Origin: a virus
Lineage: Duplodnaviria; Heunggongvirae; Uroviricota; Caudoviricetes
Virus record (IMG/VR): IMGVR_UViG_2778261226_000006
Length of the DNA: 38,474 bases
Reading direction: 5' to 3' (one strand)
Every line of letters starts with the position of its first letter. Positions within the stretch are counted from its first letter, which is position 1. The position numbers and the translations under genes were made by a program. The notes beneath the pieces were generated by a model. The model had not been told where the DNA came from. It saw only the letters and a list, made by a program, of their open reading frames with translations, and made no database searches. Shown here piece by piece: positions 4,798 to 15,750 of the stretch.

Positions 4798-5624
4798 AAG
4801 AAATGCACCACGGAATTCATCATTTCCATGGGACGCCTGTCTGGGGAAGTGCTGGCGACGTTCATCGTATTGCGGTGAGCGGAGCTGGCGCTTTCGTCTC
4901 CTATGTACGACCAGATCAGATTGCGGCGTCCATTCAGCACGCTCAGGTCGTCGGCATTGATAACGGCGCATTTTCTGCATGGGTGCGTGGGCTAAAAATT
5001 AACTGGAGTGATTTTTATAAATGGCTCCTGAACTATTACCACCATCCTAAGGTCGCTTTTTTTGTCATTCCTGATGTTGTGGACGGAGGTGAACGTGACA
5101 ATGATGCCCTGATAAACGAAGTTCCGAAAATGTTCTACGGGAAGGCAACTCCCGTCTGGCATCTGCACGAGTCAATCGATCGGCTTATCGAGCTATGTCG
5201 TGAATGGCCTCGTGTCTGCTTTGGATCGTCTGGTGAATATGCGGCTATCAGAACTGCGCACTGGCATCGTCGTATGCAGGACGCTTTTGAAGCAATTTAT
5301 TGCCGACACAATTTCAAAACAGCTGTTCATGGTTTGCGCATGCTTGACGGTCGTGTGTTGGGAAATTACCCACTGGCGACTGCCGACAGTACAAATCTTG
5401 CCTGCAATGTCCCCAAATTTAATAGCAAATATCCTGAGCTGACGCGGGCTATTCAGGAGGCTGAGTATTCGCGCAATCTGACGGAAAAGGAGCTGAAAGC
5501 TGTCATTCTGAAAAACCGTTGCGCAATTTTAAAAGGTGCAATTGAAGCTGTTCGCCCACCTTCAGTTTCTGATTGGCTGTCGAATGGTTTGCAGCCTTCA
5601 CAGCTCGAACTGGAGATTGCGTAA
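4794..5624 (+). CDS. Unknown early protein, possibly a TGT/DpdA-like TIM-barrel (DNA 7-deazaguanine transglycosylase-like); function unproven
   Basis: Start overlaps the dam stop (GTGA) and stop overlaps the A start (TAATG). The motif series [39 protein letters not shown] resembles the strand-end motif order of tRNA-guanine transglycosylase-fold DpdA proteins as I recall them. Confidence 0.7.
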
Positions 5625-7996
5625 TGAACTACAGCTATTCCTGGAATGCTGAGAAAAAAGCAATCAATCCTTACGTAGAGACAGAAGAGCAATCTTCAGT
5701 TTCTGCGCTTTCAAACCTGATCGCTCTGTACGCTGCCGATAACGAGCAGGAACAGCTGCGCCGCGAGGCACTGAGTGATCAGGTCTGGGAGCGTTATTTC
5801 TTTAATGAATCCCGTGATCCTGTCCAGCGCGAAATGGAGCAGGATAAGCTCATTAGTCGGGCAAAGCTGGCGCATGAGCAGCAGCGTTTTAATCCAGATA
5901 TGGTCATTCTGGCGGACGTCAATGCCCAGCCTTCCCATATCAGCAAGCCGCTGATGCAACGTATTGAATACTTCAGCAGCCTGGGCAGGCCAAAGGCTTA
6001 TTCCCGCTATTTGCGTGAGACGATTAAGCCATGTCTGGAACGGCTGGAGCATGTACGCGACTGTCAGCTATCCACTTCTTTTCGCTTTATGGCAAGCCAT
6101 GAAGGGCTGGACGGCCTGCTGATCCTGCCTGAAATGAGTCAGGATCAGGTGAAACGCCTGTCCACCCTGGTAGCTGCGCATATGAGCATGTGCCTTGATG
6201 CAGCTTGTGGCGATTTGTATGTCACCGATGACGTTAAGCCAGAAGAAATCCGCAAGACATGGGAAAAGGTGGCAGCGGAAACCCTGCGTCTGGATGTCAT
6301 CCCGCCTGCGTTTGAGCAACTCCGCCGGAAAAGAAACCGCCGTAAACCCGTGCCCTATGAACTCATTCCGGGTTCGCTGGCGCGTATGTTGTGCGCTGAC
6401 TGGTGGTACCGGAAATTATGGAAGATGCGTTGCGAATGGCGGGAAGAGCAGTTGCGTGCTGTCTGCCTGGTCAGCAAAAAAGCATCTCCCTATGTCAGCT
6501 ATGAAGCCGTGATGCATAAACGTGAGCAGCGCCGTAAGTCGCTGGAGTTTTTTCGTTCTCATGAACTGGTGAACGAAGACGGCGACACGCTGGACATGGA
6601 GGATGTGGTAAACGCCAGCAGCAGCAACCCTGCGCATCGCCGCAATGAGATGATGGCCTGTGTTAAAGGCCTGGAGCTTATCGCGGAAATGCGCGGTGAC
6701 TGCGCCGTTTTCTACACCATCACCTGTCCGTCACGTTTCCATTCCACGCTAAATAATGGCAGGCCCAACCCAACTTGGACAAATGCGACGGTAAGACAAA
6801 GCAGTGATTATCTGGTCGGCATATTTGCTGCATTTCGTAAGGCGATGCACAAAGCCGGATTGCGGTGGTATGGCGTGCGGGTGGCTGAGCCGCATCATGA
6901 CGGTACAGTTCACTGGCACCTGTTGTGTTTTATGCGCAAAAAAGACCGCCGCGCCATCACTGCATTACTGCGTAAGTTTGCCATCCGTGAAGACCGCGAG
7001 GAACTGGGCAATAACACTGGGCCGCGCTTTAAGTCTGAGTTGATTAACCCGCGCAAAGGTACGCCAACAAGCTACATCGCGAAATACATCAGTAAGAACA
7101 TTGACGGGCGTGGTCTGGCTGGCGAGATCAGCAAGGAAACGGGTAAATCTCTGCGTGATAACGCTGAATACGTTAATGCCTGGGCGTCTCTGCATCGTGT
7201 TCAGCAATTCCGCTTCTTTGGCATTCCGGGGCGTCAGGCTTACCGTGAACTGCGATTGCTGGCTGGTCAGGCGGCAAGGCAACAGGGTGACAAAAAAGCA
7301 GGTGCGCCGGTACTGGATAACCCGCGCCTTGATGCCATTCTGGCTGCAGCTGATGCTGGTTGCTTTGCCACCTACATCATGAAGCAGGGCGGCGTACTGG
7401 TTCCCCGTAAATATCACCTCATCAGAACCGCTTATGAAATCAACGAAGAGCCGACCGCCTATGGCGATCACGGTATTCGTATTTATGGCATCTGGTCACC
7501 CATTGCAGAGGGCAAGATCTGCACTCATGCAGTGAAGTGGAAAATGGTTCGTAAAGCCGTTGACGTTCAGGAGGCGGCAGCCGACCAGGGCGCTTGCGCC
7601 CCTTGGACTCGTGGCAATAACTGTCCCCTTGCTGAAAATTTGAACCAACAAGGGAAAGACAAATCAGCTGATGGGGATACCAGAACGGACATTACCCACA
7701 TGGATGACAAGGAGTTGCACGATTACCTGCACAGTATGAACAAAAAAGAGCGCCGGGAACTGGCTGCAAGGTTACGCCTGGTGAAACCGAAACGGCGTAG
7801 AGACTACAAACAGCGAATTACAGACCATCAACGACAGCAGCTCGTCTATGAACTGAAGTCCAGAGGATTTGATGGCAGCGAGAAAGAGGTCGATTTACTC
7901 CTTCGCGGCGGCAGTATTCCGTCAGGAGCAGGCCTGCGTGTCTTCTATCGGAACCAGCGTTTGCAGGAAGATGATAAGTGGCGGAACCTGTATTAA
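5624..7996 (+). CDS. A: Replication initiation endonuclease (P2 gpA / 186 A, HUH rolling-circle nickase)
   Basis: HUH-type motif [13 protein letters not shown] and the tyrosine pair in [14 protein letters not shown]. Size and position match P2 A. The ATG 5624 start overlaps the upstream stop. Confidence 0.9.
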
Positions 7997-8044
7997 TTAC
8001 GCGGGTTAACAATTCGTGCTCTTAATAATACCAGGCATATCAGG

Positions 8045-8075
8045 CTGATGAACGTAAAAAAACGTTTTACATCAG
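8045..8075 (+). terminator. Hairpin downstream of gene A (possible early-operon terminator)
   Basis: CTGATG-AACGT-loop-ACGTT-(TTA bulge)-CATCAG. The T-tract is weak, so this call is tentative. Confidence 0.3.
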
Positions 8076-8090
8076 TAAGATTATTATATA

Positions 8091-8106
8091 CTGTAAATAT
8101 AAACAG
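8091..8106. promoter_or_regulatory. LexA (SOS) box
   Basis: taCTGTaaatataaACAGtg is a perfect CTGT-N8-ACAG with an AT-rich core. It lies 44 nt upstream of the 8150 start in an AT-rich promoter-like stretch. Confidence 0.8.
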
Positions 8107-8149
8107 TGGTTATCTATACAGTATTGTTTGCGGTGTCATAGGAGGAAAG

Positions 8150-8338
8150 ATGCAGGACTATTTTTTGGAGTCTTTGAAGCTCCAGCGCATTGATTTTTTT
8201 CTTAAGCTTGTAGCGGCTAGTGAGTGTAGTGATGAAGAGAAGGGGCTGGCCCTGCAGTGGGTTTCTGAATTGACTGATGAACTCATGGCAAAAATCAGAA
8301 GCCACGAATACAACCGCTCAATGGATGTCATCAGCTGA
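8150..8338 (+). CDS. Small SOS-controlled protein; candidate Tum-like antirepressor (62 aa)
   Basis: GGAGGA RBS (8141-8146) before ATG 8150, directly downstream of the LexA box. The position equals 186 tum. No sequence motif recognised. Confidence 0.55.
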   Translation: MQDYFLESLKLQRIDFFLKLVAASECSDEEKGLALQWVSELTDELMAKIRSHEYNRSMDVIS

Positions 8339-8348
8339 GGTGACTTTT

Positions 8349-8582
8349 ATGCGCATTGAAATAATGATCGATAAAGAGCAGAAGATTAGCCAGTCTACCC
8401 TGGACGCTCTGGAGTCCGAGCTTTACCGCAACCTGCAACCCATCTATCCCAAGACCGCTATCCGCATCCGTAAAGGGTCGGCAAACGGCGTTGAGCTGAG
8501 TGGCTTAAAGCTTGATGAAGACAAAAAGCGGGTGATGGAAATTATGCAACAGGTTTGGGAAGACGACAGCTGGCTGCACTAA
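8349..8582 (+). CDS. DinI-family protein
   Basis: MRIEIMIDKEQKISQSTLDALESELYRNL...KKRVMEIMQQVWEDDSWL parallels E. coli DinI (MRIEVTIAK...ISEILQETWES..DWF). Confidence 0.85.
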   Translation: MRIEIMIDKEQKISQSTLDALESELYRNLQPIYPKTAIRIRKGSANGVELSGLKLDEDKKRVMEIMQQVWEDDSWLH

Positions 8583-8700
8583 GGAACGTTCCTGATGTAA
8601 GAACTTGAATCTGACGTCAGCAAGGTTGAACAACGAGAGTAGCGAGGCGTTAGCCATGGGTAAAAAAGACAGTAATCACCAGATTATTTATCGGGGCTAG

Positions 8701-8916
8701 GTGCTGGAACGTTTAACCCTTGGCGACTGGGTCTTCTTTCAACGCCCAAAGGAGTGTGGCGGAGGTTTTTGGTTGGGCCGCATCTATGAAGACTGCTTCT
8801 GGCTTGAGCTGGAATTCCCCGTTTCGCTATATGACGGCCTGGGGTTTTTGATGGAAGTCACTAGGGTAGAGCAGAGAAGTGATGAGGTTGACGCGAATTA
8901 TCCCCTGTTTGATTAA
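8701..8916 (+). CDS. Hypothetical 71-aa ORF (GTG start)
   Basis: Open frame only. The RBS is weak and no motif is recognised. Confidence 0.3.
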   Translation: MLERLTLGDWVFFQRPKECGGGFWLGRIYEDCFWLELEFPVSLYDGLGFLMEVTRVEQRSDEVDANYPLFD

Positions 8917-8964
8917 AAATGTATTAGCTTATAATGGAATACTATTTTTGCAGGTGGGGGCGCA

Positions 8965-9576
8965 ATGGATTTAGTCTTTAAAGTTCTGGCTTCGTTGGGT
9001 GGGGTGTCTTTTGTTGCATCTGGCATATTTGTTTGGATCGGGAAAGTTTATTTAGAAAGATATAAGTCGCGGCTAAACAAAGATATTGCTGAATTTCAAT
9101 CACAACTGAGTGCAACTAATGAAAGAATAAAGGCTAAGTTAGACAATTCTGTTTATGTAACGAAAGCGTATTTTGATAAGGAGTTATCAGCATATAGTCT
9201 CATTTGGAATTCGATGTTTGAAACCAGAGAAAGCGTGCTTAAGCTGAGGCCTGCGCTGGATCATGTTGACCCCAACGAACCATTTGAAGAGAGAAAATTT
9301 AGAAGGTTGAAAGTTTTTTTTGATGCATTTAACACTTTTGTTACAAGTGTTGAATCTAACAAACCGTTCATCTCACCAGAGGTTTATATAATCTTGGACC
9401 GTTTCCGGAAGGAATGCCTTTCAGAGTCAATATCGTTTAAGCATAGCGATCCAGAATTTGACGGGCAAAATTATTGGAAAGAGGCGGAGTTGAACCATAC
9501 AACCATCACCAAGCTTTTTGATGAGACGTGTGATGCAATTCGAAACAGGATGCACACATTAACTGTGGTTACGTAG
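8965..9576 (+). CDS. Single-pass membrane protein with helical cytoplasmic domain (203 aa); cargo at the tin/old position next to cos
   Basis: N-terminal TM helix VLASLGGVSFVASGIFVWIG followed by a long predicted helical region. It starts a visibly AT-rich block. The position corresponds to the P2 tin/old variable locus. Confidence 0.75.
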   Translation: MDLVFKVLASLGGVSFVASGIFVWIGKVYLERYKSRLNKDIAEFQSQLSATNERIKAKLDNSVYVTKAYFDKELSAYSLIWNSMFETRESVLKLRPALDHVDPNEPFEERKFRRLKVFFDAFNTFVTSVESNKPFISPEVYIILDRFRKECLSESISFKHSDPEFDGQNYWKEAELNHTTITKLFDETCDAIRNRMHTLTVVT

Positions 9577-9668
9577 GTTTCCAAAAAGTCTCGATGCCCG
9601 CTTTGGAGATTGTGCATGTCTATGCCGCATGAATCCGCATGATCGTTTGAGGATCGTTTTAGCTGAGG

Positions 9669-9695
9669 CCCGCCAGGAGTGGCGGGATTTTGCTT
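9669..9695 (+). terminator. Rho-independent terminator-like hairpin
   Basis: CCCGCCA-ggag-TGGCGGG followed by ATTTTGCTT, downstream of the 203-aa ORF. Confidence 0.45.
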
Positions 9696-9736
9696 ATGTC
9701 ATGCAGGCGCATGAAAACCGCTACATAAAGCGGGCA

Positions 9737-9755
9737 GGCGTGGCGGGGATACGAG
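9737..9755. other. Candidate cos cohesive-end site (186-like)
   Basis: GGCGTGGCGGGGATACGAG shares its first 13 nt with the 186 cohesive end as I recall it (GGCGTGGCGGGGAAAGCAT; P2 is GGCGAGGCGGGGAAAGCAC). It lies in a GC-rich non-coding island between two AT-rich cargo blocks. Its orientation relative to Q matches P2. Confidence 0.55.
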
Positions 9756-9825
9756 CGCGCGCAAATATGGAAATTAGCTGCGTTTTGTTATATATAGGAG
9801 AGATATTAAAAGGGTAGGCACCACT

Positions 9826-10350
9826 ATGACTGTTTTACACCTTGTAGCAGACCACCTTGTTAAGCAGGCTAATACAACCCATAGAAAGGGGGAGGTGCAC
9901 GCAATATTAGCAGATGCATATGGTCGTTCTGCTTTTAATCGGTATTATTATGCTTGTTTTCTTAACGTCCGTGAGTTTGTTTCAACTATTGATTCCAATT
10001 GGGGCAAGGTCAAGCATGCAGATGTTCCAAAATTATTACGTGATAGTGTAAGTAGAAAGATAGAAGTTGAGCTCCAAAAATCAGAAAAAATTGGCGATAT
10101 AACTTTATGTGAATATAAATCTAAAAAGAGCTTAATACGTACTTCACTGAACAATATGGCTTCAACTATGGCATTGGCATATACAATTAGGGGAGTTGTT
10201 GATTATGAGCCGGAAATTGAGATGATATTCTGTAATGGCAGTTTTTCGATTAATAAAACATCAGTGGCTTCGGCTAAGGGGTGGCTACAAACCATTAATT
10301 CAGAAAGATCGAAGGTTACCAGAATTATGAAGGAGATTGGCTTTGTCTAA
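9826..10350 (+). CDS. HEPN-like all-helical protein (174 aa), first gene of the retron-associated operon
   Basis: AYGRSAFNRYYYACFLNVREFV...KVKHADVPKLL and a distal AYTIRGVVDYEPE resemble the HEPN (PF05168-type) pattern: ...YYA.F.a...l....sH... then R...DY. AT-rich. The stop overlaps the next ORF. Confidence 0.72.
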   Translation: MTVLHLVADHLVKQANTTHRKGEVHAILADAYGRSAFNRYYYACFLNVREFVSTIDSNWGKVKHADVPKLLRDSVSRKIEVELQKSEKIGDITLCEYKSKKSLIRTSLNNMASTMALAYTIRGVVDYEPEIEMIFCNGSFSINKTSVASAKGWLQTINSERSKVTRIMKEIGFV

Positions 10351-11080
10351 CCAGAAAATATTATCAGAATTGTTGGTAAAATTCCCGTTTATAAAAGTTA
10401 AAGATGTAACAGATTTTATGGATACAATTCTGTTGATCATCCCAATTAACAAAATAGTACCATTGTCTGCTTCGAATAGTATAACAAAACGCCAGATATC
10501 TTTATTGGTGAAACGAATAACAGAAAAGCTAAATGTAAGAGTGTTGATTAGTTACTCACCATTTTCAGATAAAGACAATATTGAAGCGGCTTTAGTGGCG
10601 TTAGCGAGAAGTAATTTTAAAAAAGGGAAGATATCTGATTTGAATTTATCTTTCTTTGATTCGCAAAACGCAGTGCTTTATGTCTTTTGTAAAAACCTTA
10701 CATTATCAGAACGCGAGAAGTGGGAGTCGTTAGTTGTAGGGATATTAAACGGTTTTAATATAAAAGTGACTTCATTTGTATATGAGGCTAAAAATAATCC
10801 TGAACCTACAATGATGGTTATTTTAAGAGCGGCAAAAAAATGTCAGCCCTTTGATCTTCCAAGATTGTTCAGTCAACTTGATAATGGCGATTATCATATT
10901 GAATCACTTGATTGGCTGAATGGGAAGCTAGACAACTTACGTAAGAAAGGATTTTTATTAAGAAGCCATGACGGAACTTATAGAATGACATTGTCAGGGT
11001 TAGAAATAGTTCCAGTGACTAAATCTAGGCAAAGTTCTGATATAGAGAGGGTCCTTTATCTTGCACGCAAACATCTATAG
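10337..11080 (+). CDS. Unknown protein with C-terminal winged-helix-like domain (about 245 aa), second gene of the retron-associated operon
   Basis: Overlaps the upstream stop (TTG 10337 or TTG 10343, 7 nt after GGAG). The C-terminal segment MMVILRAAKKCQPFDLPRLFSQLD...LDNLRKKGFLLRSHDGTYRMTLSGLEIV looks like a wHTH with a beta-wing. The N-terminal alpha/beta region was not recognised. Confidence 0.72.
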   Translation: MALSNQKILSELLVKFPFIKVKDVTDFMDTILLIIPINKIVPLSASNSITKRQISLLVKRITEKLNVRVLISYSPFSDKDNIEAALVALARSNFKKGKISDLNLSFFDSQNAVLYVFCKNLTLSEREKWESLVVGILNGFNIKVTSFVYEAKNNPEPTMMVILRAAKKCQPFDLPRLFSQLDNGDYHIESLDWLNGKLDNLRKKGFLLRSHDGTYRMTLSGLEIVPVTKSRQSSDIERVLYLARKHL

Positions 11081-11089
11081 TGGTATATT
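11061..11089 (+). promoter_or_regulatory. Sigma70 extended -10 promoter for the retron ncRNA
   Basis: TTGCAC (11061-11066), a 17-nt spacer containing TG, then TATATT (11084-11089): TGgTATATT. The predicted start, about 7 nt downstream, coincides with the first base of the a2 repeat (11096). Confidence 0.5.
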
Positions 11090-11095
11090 CGCGTT

Positions 11096-11268
11096 GGTAG
11101 TGGCGTTCACGAGAGTATGCATCATGCTCATTTGTGAAGGTCGCGGACAGAATGTGCGCCTGCGAATCAGCAGTCGTTCCTTCGAAACGTCTGCTGATTC
11201 GCAGGCGTCATCAACGAAAGTTTTCATCAGCTTTGCTTAAGGATTGACCTTATGAAAACGCCACTACC
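11096..11268 (+). ncRNA. Retron msr-msd non-coding RNA (template and primer for msDNA)
   Basis: 12-nt perfect inverted repeats GGTAGTGGCGTT (11096-11107, a2) and AACGCCACTACC (11257-11268, a1). Short msr-like hairpins lie at 11108-11136. The long msd hairpin has arm GCCTGCGAATCAGCAG (11158-11173) and arm CTGCTGATTCGCAGGC (11191-11206), 16 bp perfect, plus a 4-bp inner stem. It lies immediately upstream of, and overlaps the start of, a retron-type RT. Confidence 0.7.
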
Positions 11269-12229
11269 CTTATTTTTCACATTCACTGATGCCGAACAGT
11301 TTCTTAAGGCGTTGAGCACACCGCTGAGAGATAGATATTCTGCGGAACTTATTCGACTACAAGGCCTCAGGCTTCCCCCATTAGTTTCTTGGAGTATCTT
11401 GTCTGTTGCCATTGGCGTAAGCCCACAATTTATTACTTCGTTAATTAAGAATAAGTCAAAATACTATCGTGTTTTTTCTATTTCCAAAGGAAGAGGAAAG
11501 AAAAAAAGAATTATTGAAGCACCCAAGGTTAGTATAAAAATCATTCAGTCTTGGGTCGCTCATCATTTAAGCATTAATCATAGTCTTGGCATAAGTGAAA
11601 ATGCATATGCTTTTATCCCAGGTAAGAATGGGATATATGAAGCTGCAAGTAAACATTGTGGTGCAAAATGGATCCTGTCTATTGATTTAAGAGATTTTTT
11701 CCATACGATCACTTCAGATATAGTGATTTCAACATTAGTTGAAATCGGATATAGAGCCGATCAGGCTGCTAAATTGAGTGAATTACTTACCTTGAATCAG
11801 AGACTTCCGCAAGGTGCGCCAAGTAGCCCTGTTATCTCAAATTTAGTATTTAGGTCAACTGACTTAAAGATTAATGAGTTGATTTCTAATACGGGTATTA
11901 AATATACTAGATATGCTGATGATTTGACCTTCTCCGGTGATGATGAAACATTTGATATCGAGGAACTTAAAGATAATGTTGTAGAGTTGTTACTATCTGA
12001 TAATTGGGTTGTGGCTGAGGAAAAACTCAGAATAGCTAGGATTCCTAATAGATTAAAAGTACATGGTTTTCTAGTTCATGAAAATAAACCTAGATTGACT
12101 AAAGGCTATCGAAATAAAATTAGAGCATATAAACATTTATTGAGGACTGGGAAAATAGTTGAGAAGGATTTTGATAAAATTAAAGGGCATGTTAACTATA
12201 GTGAATATATTGATAGATTGAATGAGTAA
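11252..12229 (+). CDS. ret: Retron-type reverse transcriptase (325 aa)
   Basis: RT motifs KKKRIIEAP, SIDLRDFFHTI, LPQGAPSSPVISN and the YTRYADDLTFSG (YADD) active site. Retron-style NAYAF is present, and LKVHGFLV sits at the position of the retron VTG motif. Size is typical of stand-alone retron RTs. Confidence 0.92.
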   Translation: MKTPLPLFFTFTDAEQFLKALSTPLRDRYSAELIRLQGLRLPPLVSWSILSVAIGVSPQFITSLIKNKSKYYRVFSISKGRGKKKRIIEAPKVSIKIIQSWVAHHLSINHSLGISENAYAFIPGKNGIYEAASKHCGAKWILSIDLRDFFHTITSDIVISTLVEIGYRADQAAKLSELLTLNQRLPQGAPSSPVISNLVFRSTDLKINELISNTGIKYTRYADDLTFSGDDETFDIEELKDNVVELLLSDNWVVAEEKLRIARIPNRLKVHGFLVHENKPRLTKGYRNKIRAYKHLLRTGKIVEKDFDKIKGHVNYSEYIDRLNE

Positions 12230-12249
12230 GGGCCTAGCCCTTACTCATT
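12221..12249. terminator. Bidirectional hairpin between convergent ret and Q
   Basis: AATGAGTAAGGGC-cta-GCCCTTACTCATT is a 13-bp perfect stem that spans both stop codons. Confidence 0.6.
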
Positions 12250-13280
12250 TAATTTAATGTGTATATTCCAAAGGATATGATTTTATCTCCTATCCAGTTA
12301 TTTAACTCTTCTAGTCTTCTCTGTAATGGTATTAACTCATTCCTCACAAAAACAAGGCTTGCCTTCTCCACATCCCCAAAACCCCCAACATTATTAGGCA
12401 TTATCCCCATCATTTGTGGGGGTACACGATGCGCCGCCATCATGTCGTCCCGGCTTACGTTCTTGATGTTCAGAAACTCATCCTTCGCCGCGACTTCTGA
12501 TAACGGGATAATCTGAAGTCCGTCCTTTTTGCCGTTAGGAGAGTACATAAACAGATTGCGGAAGTTACCTGGTCCTTTGGCGCTTTTCATTGCATTGCGG
12601 AGGTTGTTCACATCCTCCTGGTTTTGTGCGGCGTCGGTCATGTACATGATGAAGCCTGCATGACTGCCGTTGATGTAATACTTCCGGCGGAACAGCGTGG
12701 CGGACTCGTTGAGCAGGGCTGACGGAATGGCAGAAAGATAACCGGGCAGGCCGTAGATCTCCTGGTTGATGTCCGGTTCCATCAGATGAAAAATGCTGCC
12801 TTTCGTGAACTGATACGGCTGGGTTGTCATACCGTATTGCACAAACCAGTAGGTATCCAGGTCTAACCCGCGTCGGGTGTATTTTGCCAGAGCAGGCTCA
12901 AGGGCGATAACTTCACCAAACCGGTTCGTGCGTTTCTCCAGGTAGGCGTTACCAAATACCAGATAGTCCTGCACAAAACGTGAAAAAGCCTGTTGGCTGA
13001 GCAGCGGGTGAGGGATGTAGGTGCTGGTCAGAATGTTGCATTTCACCGCAATCGGTGAGCTGTGATGCACGGCGGCGCGGAAGGTTCGCGCCAGTCCGTC
13101 AAAGCTGACGGGAGGCTCATACCAGCGATCTGTCTGTACGCATTCCACATAGTCCAGCAGTTCGCGGCGGTCAAGTACTGGAATGGGATCACCGAAGCTG
13201 AAAGCCTCAGCCGTTGGAGCGTTGCCTGGTTTTGTGTTGTGATCAACCTTTACCAGTTTGATGTTTTTATGTTTGCTCAT
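12249..13280 (-). CDS. Q: Portal protein (P2 gpQ)
   Basis: 343 aa at the P2 Q position and orientation. Sequence is of the P2 portal family (…YGLPGYLSAIPSALLNESATLFRRKYY…). Confidence 0.92.
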   Translation of the reverse strand: MSKHKNIKLVKVDHNTKPGNAPTAEAFSFGDPIPVLDRRELLDYVECVQTDRWYEPPVSFDGLARTFRAAVHHSSPIAVKCNILTSTYIPHPLLSQQAFSRFVQDYLVFGNAYLEKRTNRFGEVIALEPALAKYTRRGLDLDTYWFVQYGMTTQPYQFTKGSIFHLMEPDINQEIYGLPGYLSAIPSALLNESATLFRRKYYINGSHAGFIMYMTDAAQNQEDVNNLRNAMKSAKGPGNFRNLFMYSPNGKKDGLQIIPLSEVAAKDEFLNIKNVSRDDMMAAHRVPPQMMGIMPNNVGGFGDVEKASLVFVRNELIPLQRRLEELNNWIGDKIISFGIYTLN

Positions 13281-13984
13281 TCTGCCAGCTCCTCGTTAGC
13301 AAGAGGCCATTCGCACATAAACAGCATTCCCCAGTCCTCTGCTGATAATTCTTTTTTCATATCATTCAGCCAGTTATCAGTAAACAACATTGCTCCTGAT
13401 GCTACTGCATCATCAGCGGTGAATACCATGCGGGTTACACTGTTGTTTCTGCTTAGCTTTTTATATTCCTGCCATGCCTCCGGGTTAGGGCTGGGAGTGG
13501 TGTAGTAGGTGGCGTGGTGGTGTGCGTGCAAGGACATTCCTTTGGCGAGAGTAATCATATTTCTCGGTGATTCAGCCCAGGCATACTCTGACACGTAGAC
13601 ATTTCCACTGAGTGCGGCGGCGTGGCACTTGAGGTCGATAAAATAAATGACCGCACCATTGGGAAACTCCAGATATGTTTTGCCAGATTTTATTTTTCCA
13701 GTGCGCGTATAAGCTGCGGTCTGGCTTAAAAATGCTGACACATAGGCTTTGACTGCCTGCGCTGATGCGGTGCTGCAGCAGAGGAAAATCTGGTTACGCC
13801 CGGTATGCAGTGCATCGATCAGGGCCTCATAGGCAAAAAAGAAATCCGCTCCTGCCTGGCGCATTTTTGTGAGTAAACGGTTTCTACTCTTTGGGCCAGT
13901 GTTCCACTCATACTGGTAATCAAAGAAAGTGCTATCCACCGGAAGTCCCGCGATAGTCATGAGGTTAGTTGGGATTGGGGGCAT
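13277..13984 (-). CDS. Terminase-large-subunit ATPase-domain paralogue (235 aa), lacking the N-terminal and nuclease domains
   Basis: Aligns by eye to roughly residues 150-395 of the adjacent gpP. FFFAYEALIDALHTGRNQIFLCCS matches FYFAHEALIDALLTGRNQIFLSAS. NVYVSEYAW matches NLYLDEYFW. YYTTPS matches YFSTPS. MLFMCEW matches LLMCEF. Start and stop overlap the P stop and the Q start. Confidence 0.8.
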   Translation of the reverse strand: MPPIPTNLMTIAGLPVDSTFFDYQYEWNTGPKSRNRLLTKMRQAGADFFFAYEALIDALHTGRNQIFLCCSTASAQAVKAYVSAFLSQTAAYTRTGKIKSGKTYLEFPNGAVIYFIDLKCHAAALSGNVYVSEYAWAESPRNMITLAKGMSLHAHHHATYYTTPSPNPEAWQEYKKLSRNNSVTRMVFTADDAVASGAMLFTDNWLNDMKKELSAEDWGMLFMCEWPLANEELAE

Positions 13985-15750
13985 CAAAAAATCTCCACAA
14001 TATTGCTGGTATTGGCGGACTCGCCCTGCAGCGGTTCGTTAAACAGTGCGTGCATTGTTGCCCAGGCCAGATCGGCATGGCTGGCTTCTTCGCTGCGGCT
14101 GGCTTCATAGGTCGGGCGGTTGCCGCTGGCGGTGGTGGCGCGACGGATTGCCATAAATGACTGCGCAATGTCGGTGTGCCCGGCGTCAAACTCCAGACGG
14201 CGGTGGCTGATAATGTCGTAGGCCTTGAGTACCAGGGCGTTTTTAACGTTGGGGTTGTAGACAAACTCCCGGACGGCAGGAAAGAACGCTTTCACGTTCT
14301 CGTAAACTCCGTGACCGACACCTGTCGAGTCGATACCGATATAGGTCACGTTGTACTGTTCGGTCAGTTTTTTGATGGCGTCAGCCTGGGCGCGGAAGTC
14401 CATCCCGCGCCACTGGTGACGCTCAAGAATGCGAAACTTACCGCCTGGCACGGCTGGCGGTGCCACCACCACGCATCCGGCGCTGTCGCCGTTCTGCGTA
14501 CCTTTTGCCGGGTCATAACCGATCCACACTTCTCGCCAGCCAAACGGGCGCAGGGCCAGTGCATGAAAGTCGGTCCAGACTTCCCAACTGTCCACCATGC
14601 ATGCCTGCAGCTCGCTGAGCGGAAATACGGACGCGAGATCGTCCACGAATTCACACATCAGCAGGTTCTGGTATTCGTCCGGGCTGTATTCCATGCGCAA
14701 CTGGTCAAGGTCGAACAGGTTACAGCCGCCGCGCACCGCATCTTCCACGGTGACTATCTGGCGGTATTGCCCGTCTGCACACAGCAGGCCTGGAGCCAGA
14801 TTGCTGTGGGACAGGTCGATGTCCACCTTGTCGGCTTTATTGCGCCCACGGTTGAATAGCGCACCGGACCAGAACGGATAAGCACTGTGTGTCAGGCTGG
14901 ATGGCGTGGAAAAATAGGTTTGTCGCCATTTTTTGTGAATAGCCATACCGGAAGCCACTTTGCGCAGCTCCTGGAATTTCGGTATCCAGAAATATTCATC
15001 CAGATACAGGTTTCCGTGGTAACTCTGGGCCGTGCGGGCATTGGTGCCGAGGAAATACAGTGTGGCCCCGTTGGGAAGCACCATCGGATCGCCTTTCAGC
15101 TCCACTTCCACTTCTTTGGCGAAGTCGATGATGTACTGCTTAAAGACGTGGGCCTGTGCCTTGCTGGCGGAAAGGAAAATCTGGTTACGTCCGGTAAGCA
15201 GAGCGTCAATCAGGGCTTCATGGGCAAAGTAAAAGGTCGCGCCGATCTGGCGTGACTTCAGCAGGTTGCGGATGCGGTTGGTTTTTCCGGCTTCCCACCA
15301 GTGGCGCTGGTAGTTGAACATGGAGGAATGGAAGATTTCTTCCAGCTTCTCAATCTGCTCATCGGTGAAAACATTCTTTTCCGGCTGACGGCGCGGGCCT
15401 TTGTTGCGGTTGGCGACGTTAGGGTTTAAGTCGGCTTCGTTGCCGCCATTGTTAAACTTGCCGATCCGCGCGTGGCGTTCCGACTGGCGCGCCAGCAGGT
15501 CAATCTCTTTGAAATCTTTCCCTTCTTTGTGCTCCTTCATAATGAGCTGGCAGTAGCGTGCGGCGGTGGTGAGCTGCATCTGATCCAGCGGCCCATAGTC
15601 ACCCCACTTGTCGCGTTTCTTCCAGCTGTGAACGGTTGCAACTTTCTCGCCCAGCATTTCAGCAATGCGGGCTACACGGTATCCCTGAAAGTACAGCAGC
15701 ATGGCCTGCCGACGGGGATCGAGATCTGCGGGTGTCAGTGTGGTGTTCAT
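13984..15750 (-). CDS. P: Terminase large subunit (P2 gpP)
   Basis: 588 aa with an ATPase segment (KSRQIGATFYFA, LYLDEYFW) and a C-terminal nuclease-type domain (IGYDPA...IGIDSTGVG). Occupies the P2 P position. Confidence 0.93.
   Translation of the reverse strand: MNTTLTPADLDPRRQAMLLYFQGYRVARIAEMLGEKVATVHSWKKRDKWGDYGPLDQMQLTTAARYCQLIMKEHKEGKDFKEIDLLARQSERHARIGKFNNGGNEADLNPNVANRNKGPRRQPEKNVFTDEQIEKLEEIFHSSMFNYQRHWWEAGKTNRIRNLLKSRQIGATFYFAHEALIDALLTGRNQIFLSASKAQAHVFKQYIIDFAKEVEVELKGDPMVLPNGATLYFLGTNARTAQSYHGNLYLDEYFWIPKFQELRKVASGMAIHKKWRQTYFSTPSSLTHSAYPFWSGALFNRGRNKADKVDIDLSHSNLAPGLLCADGQYRQIVTVEDAVRGGCNLFDLDQLRMEYSPDEYQNLLMCEFVDDLASVFPLSELQACMVDSWEVWTDFHALALRPFGWREVWIGYDPAKGTQNGDSAGCVVVAPPAVPGGKFRILERHQWRGMDFRAQADAIKKLTEQYNVTYIGIDSTGVGHGVYENVKAFFPAVREFVYNPNVKNALVLKAYDIISHRRLEFDAGHTDIAQSFMAIRRATTASGNRPTYEASRSEEASHADLAWATMHALFNEPLQGESANTSNIVEIF

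Follow-up and report, generated by a model that had tools for sequence, protein, structure and literature searches.

The window analysed here (the whole stretch of viral DNA, 38,474 nucleotides) carries at 9826-11080 two overlapping genes, ORF1 and ORF2, which a sequence-only reading had taken for a retron effector pair: a HEPN RNase and a nucleic-acid-binding winged-helix (WH) partner, held in check by a complex of reverse transcriptase (RT) and msDNA and acting by abortive infection. The locus raises the question of whether the pair belongs to a retron, and whether such a retron would be of a new type. Positions 9826-12229 hold three genes on the same strand and one structured intergenic region, and the features to which we refer, assigned by comparison, are as follows.

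5573-7996: replication endonuclease gpA (phrog_91)
9826-10350, + strand: type IX retron toxin (HEPN effector) of 174 aa; catalytic pair H64/R122, substrate-positioning Y40-Y42, accessory H10/Q14
10343-11080, + strand: WH (KH-KH-HTH) partner, 245 aa, most likely TTG start; Shine-Dalgarno GGAG at 10332-10335
11061-11089, + strand: putative ncRNA promoter; -35 TTGCAC at 11061-11066, 17-nt spacer, extended -10 TGG-TATATT at 11081-11089
11096-11268, + strand: 173-nt ncRNA of the retron (msr-msd), with a1 (11096-11107) paired to a2 (11257-11268)
11113-11129, + strand: msr stem-loop 1, G18-C34 in the numbering of Hayashi et al. (G1 = 11096)
11140-11215, + strand: predicted reverse-transcribed template, G45-C120 in Kva2 numbering
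11157-11178 and 11186-11207, + strand: 22-nt arms of the msd hairpin, with the conserved loop CCUUCGAA
11216-11235, + strand: small hairpin after the msd template, G11216-AAAG...CUUU-G11235
11252-12229, + strand: retron RT, 325 aa; RT_IX 4.2e-129, Pfam RVT_1 5.4e-23, 64% identity to the Kva2-like locus L059
12221-12249, no strand assigned: 13-bp perfect hairpin, AATGAGTAAGGGC / GCCCTTACTCATT, with a 3-nt loop, reaching across the stop codons of the RT gene and of the portal gene that converges on it
12249-13280, - strand: portal (gpQ) (phrog_68)

Judged by sequence comparison, ORF1 and ORF2 are the HEPN RNase toxin and the winged-helix partner of a type IX retron. The locus as a whole is, with high confidence, a type IX retron, an anti-phage system that is complete and appears intact; its orthologues are Retron-Kva2, Retron-Sen3 and Retron-Yin1, and it is carried as cargo between gpA and gpQ of a P2-like E. 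coli prophage. PADLOC profiles matched all three proteins over nearly their full length (HEPN_IX to ORF1, 1.4e-52; HTH_IX to ORF2, 1.5e-61; RT_IX to the RT, 4.2e-129), and the second-best PADLOC model for the RT was RT_II-A, at 6e-67. The chains of PDB 36ht (Retron-Kva2) gave end-to-end matches to the HEPN (5e-67), the WH (3.6e-78) and the RT (1.5e-145 over residues 1-325). BLASTP against L059, whose HEPN differs from the 36ht HEPN chain by one residue, produced gapless alignments with 60% identity for the HEPN, 51% for the WH and 64% for the RT. The family call rests on these three independent profile models, on the full-length matches to all three 36ht chains and on the identities to the Kva2-like locus. 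With the literature positions read off the alignments, all residues found essential by mutagenesis in Kva2 and Sen3 are kept in the HEPN, RT and WH of the window.

Type IX was described by Mestre et al. in 2020 (PMC7736814) as an RT and ncRNA with a HEPN and a C-terminal winged-helix protein. The HEPN-like protein (cluster 1740_1) is encoded upstream and lacks Rx4-6H while having a conserved Arg and a separate conserved His, and the second gene, which encodes the C-terminal winged helix, overlaps the first by about 8 bp (PMC7736814). The window locus agrees with this description in its RT clade and YADD motif, in its upstream HEPN gene, in the 8-bp overlap of its WH gene and in the position of its ncRNA between the WH and RT genes. 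The type is thus not new, having been classified in 2020 and solved structurally in 2026, and the novelty that the sequence-only reading had implied for a HEPN-partnered retron falls away, since type IX has been so defined since 2020 (PMC7736814). The PADLOC Retron IX models, which are standard in defence annotation, already recognise the locus. Its functional interpretation draws on three type IX preprints of July 2026 (bioRxiv 10.64898/2026.07.14.738597; PMC13405049; bioRxiv 10.64898/2026.07.14.737667), hereafter the July 2026 preprints.

The HEPN-like character of ORF1 had been read by eye from three peptides, RSAFNRYYYACFLNVREF (residues 34-51), KVKHADVPKLL (61-71) and IRGVVDYEPE (121-130), all of which are present in the protein, and the profile and 36ht matches given above confirm it. 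Across a 23-member alignment that reaches down to 27% identity, the residues R34, A36-F-N-R-Y-Y-Y-A43, R49, H64, P68, R122, D126, Y127 and P129 are invariant. The Arg and DY of the late motif had been rightly recognised and form a true active-site element, but the spacing is R122-x3-D126-Y127 and not R-x4-DY. ORF1 lacks the canonical Rx4-6H: the residues after R122 read GVVDYEPE, and no His follows at a distance of 4-6 residues. In the type IX HEPN the active-site His is contributed by another helix and, in the dimer, by the other protomer (PMC7736814; July 2026 preprints). Because the canonical motif is missing and the literature assigns catalysis to H64 and R122 across the dimer, we regard ORF1 as a divergent HEPN. 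ORF1 has the alpha-helical up-down bundle of the HEPN fold. The structural comparison that had been proposed as a check on this fold, a Foldseek search of the PDB with the HEPN model, returned no significant match, and a Pfam search with ORF1 and ORF2 gave no match at E <= 1.

Mutational data are available for the same residues in related systems. In Kva2, H64A and R122A abolished toxicity, RNA cleavage and defence; H64A in Sen3 led to loss of defence (July 2026 preprints). Defence was also lost with a Y40-42A triple mutant, and H10A/Q14A gave a partial defect (July 2026 preprints). Cleavage of tRNA and rRNA has been demonstrated for Kva2 and for the Sen3/Yin1 systems (July 2026 preprints). 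H64, R122, Y40-42 and H10/Q14 sit at identical numbering in the window HEPN and in Kva2. The residues picked by hand in ORF1 thus proved to be functional ones, H64 and R122 corresponding to the catalytic pair mutated in Kva2 and Y40-42 to residues that position the substrate, which shows that a by-eye reading of HEPN-like motifs found the true catalytic residues.

The mechanical listing of open reading frames gives ORF2 as 10337-11080 (247 aa) with a TTG start. We tried TTG 10337 as the start and rejected it: it lies 1 nt after the GGAG, RefSeq does not use it, and the Kva2-like locus has no start codon at the corresponding position. ORF2 most likely begins at TTG 10343, which lies 7 nt past the GGAG, is conserved in L059 and yields a protein of 245 aa that matches the 36ht WH; in an E. 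coli genome with 99.5% identity, RefSeq likewise annotates the protein at 245 aa. The 8-bp overlap of the HEPN and WH genes then reads TTGTCTAA. The earlier description of ORF2 as starting within the ORF1 stop region, with GGAG followed by TTG, is correct except for the choice of TTG, and the length becomes 245 aa and not 247.

That ORF2 would be a winged-helix-like partner is upheld by its matches to HTH_IX and to the Kva2 WH, both far beyond chance. The segment LRKKGFLLRSHDGTYRMTLSGLEIV, quoted by the sequence-only reading from the end of the protein, is present in ORF2, and ORF2 aligns with the L059 WH at 51% identity over 245 of 245 residues. Domain 3 of the Kva2 WH, an HTH plus beta-hairpin, touches the msDNA tip (July 2026 preprints), and the C-terminal HTH and wing of ORF2 are predicted from its 51% identity to that solved protein. 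The alignment to L059 indicates that ORF2 keeps R50, K57, N193, D197, R200, K201 and R207 as well as the C-terminal helix; these are contact residues as named in bioRxiv 10.64898/2026.07.14.738597, and in the solved structures they and the helix make contact with the RT and with both stem and tip of the msDNA (July 2026 preprints). Two residues of the WH dimer interface differ from Kva2 (I134 for Y134 and F138 for L138) and are still hydrophobic. PADLOC AbiEi matches ORF2 weakly (0.0029).

The ncRNA is bounded by a perfect 12-nt inverted repeat, a1/a2. The 175 nt at 11096-11270 that hold it have a minimum free energy of -82.1 kcal/mol, with z = -8.9 against shuffles. Its column identity to the Kva2-like ncRNA is 95%, much above that of the flanking coding DNA, and most of the changes relative to the Kva2-like locus in the msd stem and in msr stem-loop 1 are compensatory. 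With a covariance model based on the window ncRNA and its Kva2-like counterpart, an ncRNA was located between the WH and RT genes at every one of the 48 loci with an RT in the survey described below and at none of the three exceptions. Among the 42 ncRNAs found on the + strand, to which this comparison was confined, 90.8% of cells were paired in the model structure, compared with 36-40% in slid controls, and 52 of the 61 pairs had changed on both sides; because the alignment was fitted to the covariance model, these figures favour the model structure somewhat. The loop CCUUCGAA was exact in 31 of the 42. An Rfam scan of 8000-13000 yielded spurious hairpin matches only and no retron msr family.

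The predicted msdDNA keeps T31, G33, A34 and G36, with the tip TCGAAGG, and these four bases are read by WH residues K201, D197, N193 and R200, respectively (bioRxiv 10.64898/2026.07.14.738597). The small stem of 4 bp flanked by G after the msd was found in 39 of 42 type IX ncRNAs, most commonly as AAAG/CUUU. One of the 2026 preprints places the priming or branching G at the end of this hairpin, which would be G11235 here, whereas the other two place it canonically, next to a1; the published msdDNA lengths also disagree, at about 71-76 nt versus 55 nt. Comparative data from the E. coli locus could help to settle the disagreement over the priming site.

The ncRNA promoter had been placed within the 3' end of ORF2. 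The -35 (TTGCAC, three of six consensus matches) does lie inside ORF2, but the extended -10 falls just past the ORF2 stop, and the promoter is a consensus-level reading that the scan did not call. Its position suits G11096 as the first base of the ncRNA, and its counterpart in L059 is TTGCAA / TGT-TATTTT. The consensus scan found seven promoter-like sites in the region versus 11.2 expected, with no enrichment over shuffles, and close to the ORF2 3' end the only site that it placed on the + strand was 10958-10986, about 110 nt upstream of the ncRNA.

The start codon of the RT gene lies inside the 3' region of the ncRNA, the spacer between ORF2 and the RT gene being 171 bp. The RT has YADD at residues 221-224 and, as its alignment begins at residue 1, includes the N-terminal domain specific to type IX (about residues 1-45). 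The hairpin at 12221-12249 is, from its sequence and position, likely to terminate transcription in both directions and to mark where the cargo ends on the right. It surfaces in a spurious MIR405 alignment and is not listed by the intrinsic-terminator scan.

In order to see how constantly the gene pair accompanies an RT, the HEPN alignment was used to scan one genome per species. This gave 57 loci in Proteobacteria, Planctomycetota, Verrucomicrobiota, Acidobacteriota, Bacteroidota and others, six of which were cut by contig ends, leaving 51 evaluable. The order HEPN-WH-ncRNA-RT, with the WH and RT genes immediately downstream of the HEPN gene, is kept in 48 of the 51. Independent occurrence of the pair apart from RTs, which the sequence-only reading had named as a finding that would count against it, is thus not the pattern seen.

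Three loci depart from this order. A Betaproteobacteria metagenome-assembled genome (L007, 4001-4507) has a solo 168-aa HEPN_IX homologue beside a RelE/ParE-like pair; Paraburkholderia madseniana (L053, 376-1369) has a HEPN and a truncated 168-aa WH-like ORF with no RT; and L047 (4001-4195) has a HEPN fragment without a retron. These retron-less HEPNs are probably remnants; a solo toxic HEPN would require another antitoxin. In a Roseomonas metagenome-assembled genome (L052, 407-1612), HEPN and WH lie in one stop-to-stop frame upstream of the ncRNA and RT, which suggests a candidate HEPN-WH fusion protein, with a sequencing frameshift as the alternative.

The published type IX systems provide a mechanism. 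HEPN alone is toxic and is neutralised by RT-ncRNA-WH and partly by WH alone; a higher-order assembly is built from all four components, with WH and msDNA enclosing the active site of the HEPN dimer (July 2026 preprints). Reported activators are a lambda-exo-like exonuclease of Bas24, the PD-(D/E)XK nuclease B14T, which cuts the base of the msDNA hairpin, and the T5 DNA-binding protein D5, and the freed HEPN cleaves tRNA anticodon loops and rRNA, leading to growth arrest and abortive infection (July 2026 preprints). The three preprints differ in the shape of the assembly (a sheet, an asymmetric 4:3:2 particle or an 8-10-mer ring) and in the trigger (lambda-exo-like exonuclease, T5 D5 or PD-(D/E)XK nuclease). 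For the E. coli copy we infer the mechanism by orthology, down to msDNA production, toxicity, defence and the trigger; msDNA production and anti-phage defence that depends on RT, HEPN and WH have been shown for Kva2 and Sen3 (July 2026 preprints). The RT would copy the msd part of the ncRNA into msDNA, and a higher-order complex would form from RT, msDNA, WH and HEPN, with the WH bridging RT and HEPN and reading the tip of the msDNA hairpin. In this complex the composite site of the HEPN dimer (H64 and R122 from two protomers, with Y40-42 nearby) would be sterically occluded. The HEPN dimer would be released once a nuclease encoded by the phage cuts the msDNA or a DNA-binding protein of the phage remodels it, and free HEPN would then cut tRNA anticodon loops and rRNA, so that translation stops and the infection is aborted. 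The sequence-only proposal of a HEPN RNase and a nucleic-acid-binding WH held by RT-msDNA in an abortive-infection system coincides with this published mechanism, and the window proteins are clear orthologues of those in which it was worked out.

The sequences flanking the retron are those of a P2/186-type prophage, with gpA, a DinI-like gene, portal and terminase. The gpA-gpQ interval is a cos-proximal defence hotspot of P2-like phages (Rousset et al. 2022, PMC9122126), and the retron is found as variable cargo between these two genes. Of 5426 complete E. coli genomes, 1257 contained the backbone segment 9600-9775, whereas no more than three had the full retron, in copies with 99.1-99.5% identity to the window over the locus. 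A blastn comparison of the retron DNA, in distant mode, with sequenced phages and PLSDB plasmids gave no match.

Several other features of this prophage region were observed. Upstream of the 9600-9775 backbone, a second gpA-gpQ cargo module (8701-9576) consists of a 71-aa ORF (phrog_2100) and a 203-aa ORF, the latter a full-length match (8.7e-142) to phrog_26391, a family of unknown function. The ORFs of the module had no PADLOC match and only weak, sub-threshold Pfam matches; the module occurs in 52 of 5426 complete E. coli genomes, is missing from the other three retron-bearing genomes and may represent a defence or accessory gene that has yet to be characterised. Immediately before the retron, the backbone contains a 62-aa ORF (9629-9817; phrog_28685), whose counterpart in E. 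coli MFDS1016424 is a RefSeq pseudogene with an internal stop. The same segment includes a GC-rich stretch, GGCGTGGCGGGGATACGAG, at about 9738-9756, a possible cos site by its resemblance to that of P2/186; however, the one phage record ending in the region (Cartapus) stops at about window position 9704 instead. Beyond the portal gene, a 236-aa ORF (13277-13987, - strand) matches only the C-terminal two thirds of a large terminase (phrog_3746, profile 126-371) and has the portal gene on one side and the full-length terminase gene (588 aa, 13984-15750) on the other. It is annotated in MFDS1016424 and absent from a similar locus (L062), in which portal and terminase abut, and may be a partial duplication or insertion.

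We weighed three other explanations of the locus. ORF1 and ORF2 might be a self-contained HEPN-toxin/WH-antitoxin module that merely lies beside a retron and whose regulation does not need RT and msDNA; the large suppression of HEPN toxicity by Kva2 WH alone (July 2026 preprints) and the existence of the solo HEPN_IX of L007 and the RT-less HEPN with truncated WH of L053 speak for such a module. We consider this very unlikely, however, given that the four-part order is kept in 48 of 51 evaluable loci and the exceptions resemble decayed remnants, that RT active-site mutants and msDNA-loop deletions abolish defence by Kva2 and Sen3, and that all four components are found in the cryo-EM complexes (July 2026 preprints). 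Slightly less weight still is given to a decayed or silent prophage copy, unexpressed or non-functional, since none of the three ORFs is truncated or has lost a key residue, the ncRNA shares 95% identity with that of a functional orthologue and the copies in three other E. coli genomes match at 99.1-99.5% identity over the locus; the rarity of the retron in complete E. coli genomes (3/5426) and the lack of a statistically supported promoter in the consensus scan are what speak for it.

Lastly, ORF2 might be chiefly a winged-helix transcriptional repressor of the operon and not a structural msDNA-binding adaptor, as its C-terminal HTH/winged-helix domain and the weak PADLOC AbiEi match (0.0029) could be taken to indicate. 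In the solved orthologue, however, the HTH reads the msDNA hairpin tip and binds the N-terminal domain of the RT, while the two N-terminal WH domains wrap the HEPN (July 2026 preprints), and both the msDNA-contact residues and the msDNA tip are kept in the window, which leaves the repressor reading scarcely credible and the least probable of the three. ORF2 may have an additional regulatory role beside that of adaptor. The preferred reading is an apparently intact type IX retron in which ORF2 would serve as the adaptor. The practical value of this finding is modest: it documents a type IX retron that is native to E. coli, rare there and located in the cos-proximal hotspot of P2, and this host-matched system could serve retron biology or editing.

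Among the closest known systems is Retron-Kva2 of Klebsiella variicola (PDB 36ht). It and the window locus agree in the four components and their order, in the 8-bp HEPN/WH overlap, and in having protein lengths of 174 and 245 aa for HEPN and WH, nearly equal RTs (327 aa in Kva2, 325 aa in the window), identical numbering for H64, R122, YADD 221-224 and the WH contact residues, and ncRNAs of 173 nt with 95% column identity and the same msDNA tip. They differ in that protein identity is only 60%, 51% and 64%, in the compensatory changes of the msd stem and msr stem-loop 1, and in WH residues I134/F138 of the window versus Y134/L138 of Kva2. The vehicle also differs, being a P2-like prophage in the window, whereas the Kva2-like L059 copy adjoins T4SS genes and a SIR2 gene. 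The L059 retron (7642-10525) directly follows T4SS/conjugation genes (TrbI, a T2SSE-family ATPase and a coupling protein) and is followed on the opposite strand by genes for a 485-aa unknown protein and a SIR2_2-domain protein; it is in a defence islet on a conjugative element.

The window HEPN is 72-87% identical to copies in Citrobacter, Enterobacter, Klebsiella, Serratia and Morganella and only 60% identical to Kva2. Because of this divergence of the sub-branch HEPN from Kva2 and the compensatory changes in the msd stem, it is possible, though unlikely, that this enterobacterial sub-branch copy answers a different phage trigger or is tuned not to fire in the P2 lytic cycle.

Retron-Sen3 (Salmonella enterica arizonae) and Retron-Yin1 (Yersinia intermedia), which were compared by description, share with the window the architecture and the catalytic residues H64 and D223/D224, and in Sen3 the HTH residues D197, R200, K201 and R207 (Sen3 numbering) read the msDNA tip T-C-G-A-A-G-G. 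For Sen3/Yin1, 8-10-mer rings and a PD-(D/E)XK nuclease trigger have been reported, features that the E. coli system may share. From the HEPN-MNT toxin-antitoxin pair of Shewanella (SO_3166/SO_3165, PDB 5yep) and other minimal HEPNs (AF0298, PDB 2hsb) the type IX HEPN differs in lacking Rx4-6H, in drawing its Arg and His from different helices and protomers and in having an extra three-stranded sheet; in contrast to HEPN-MNT, it is neutralised by steric caging in the RT-msDNA-WH assembly and not by nucleotidylylation. Retron-Eco1 (Ec86, type II) resembles type IX in that an HTH reads the msDNA and the msDNA is both sensor and antitoxin. In type IX, however, DNA binding and toxicity are divided between two proteins, the toxic one being an RNase, whereas the effector of Eco1 is a nucleoside deoxyribosyltransferase-like enzyme.
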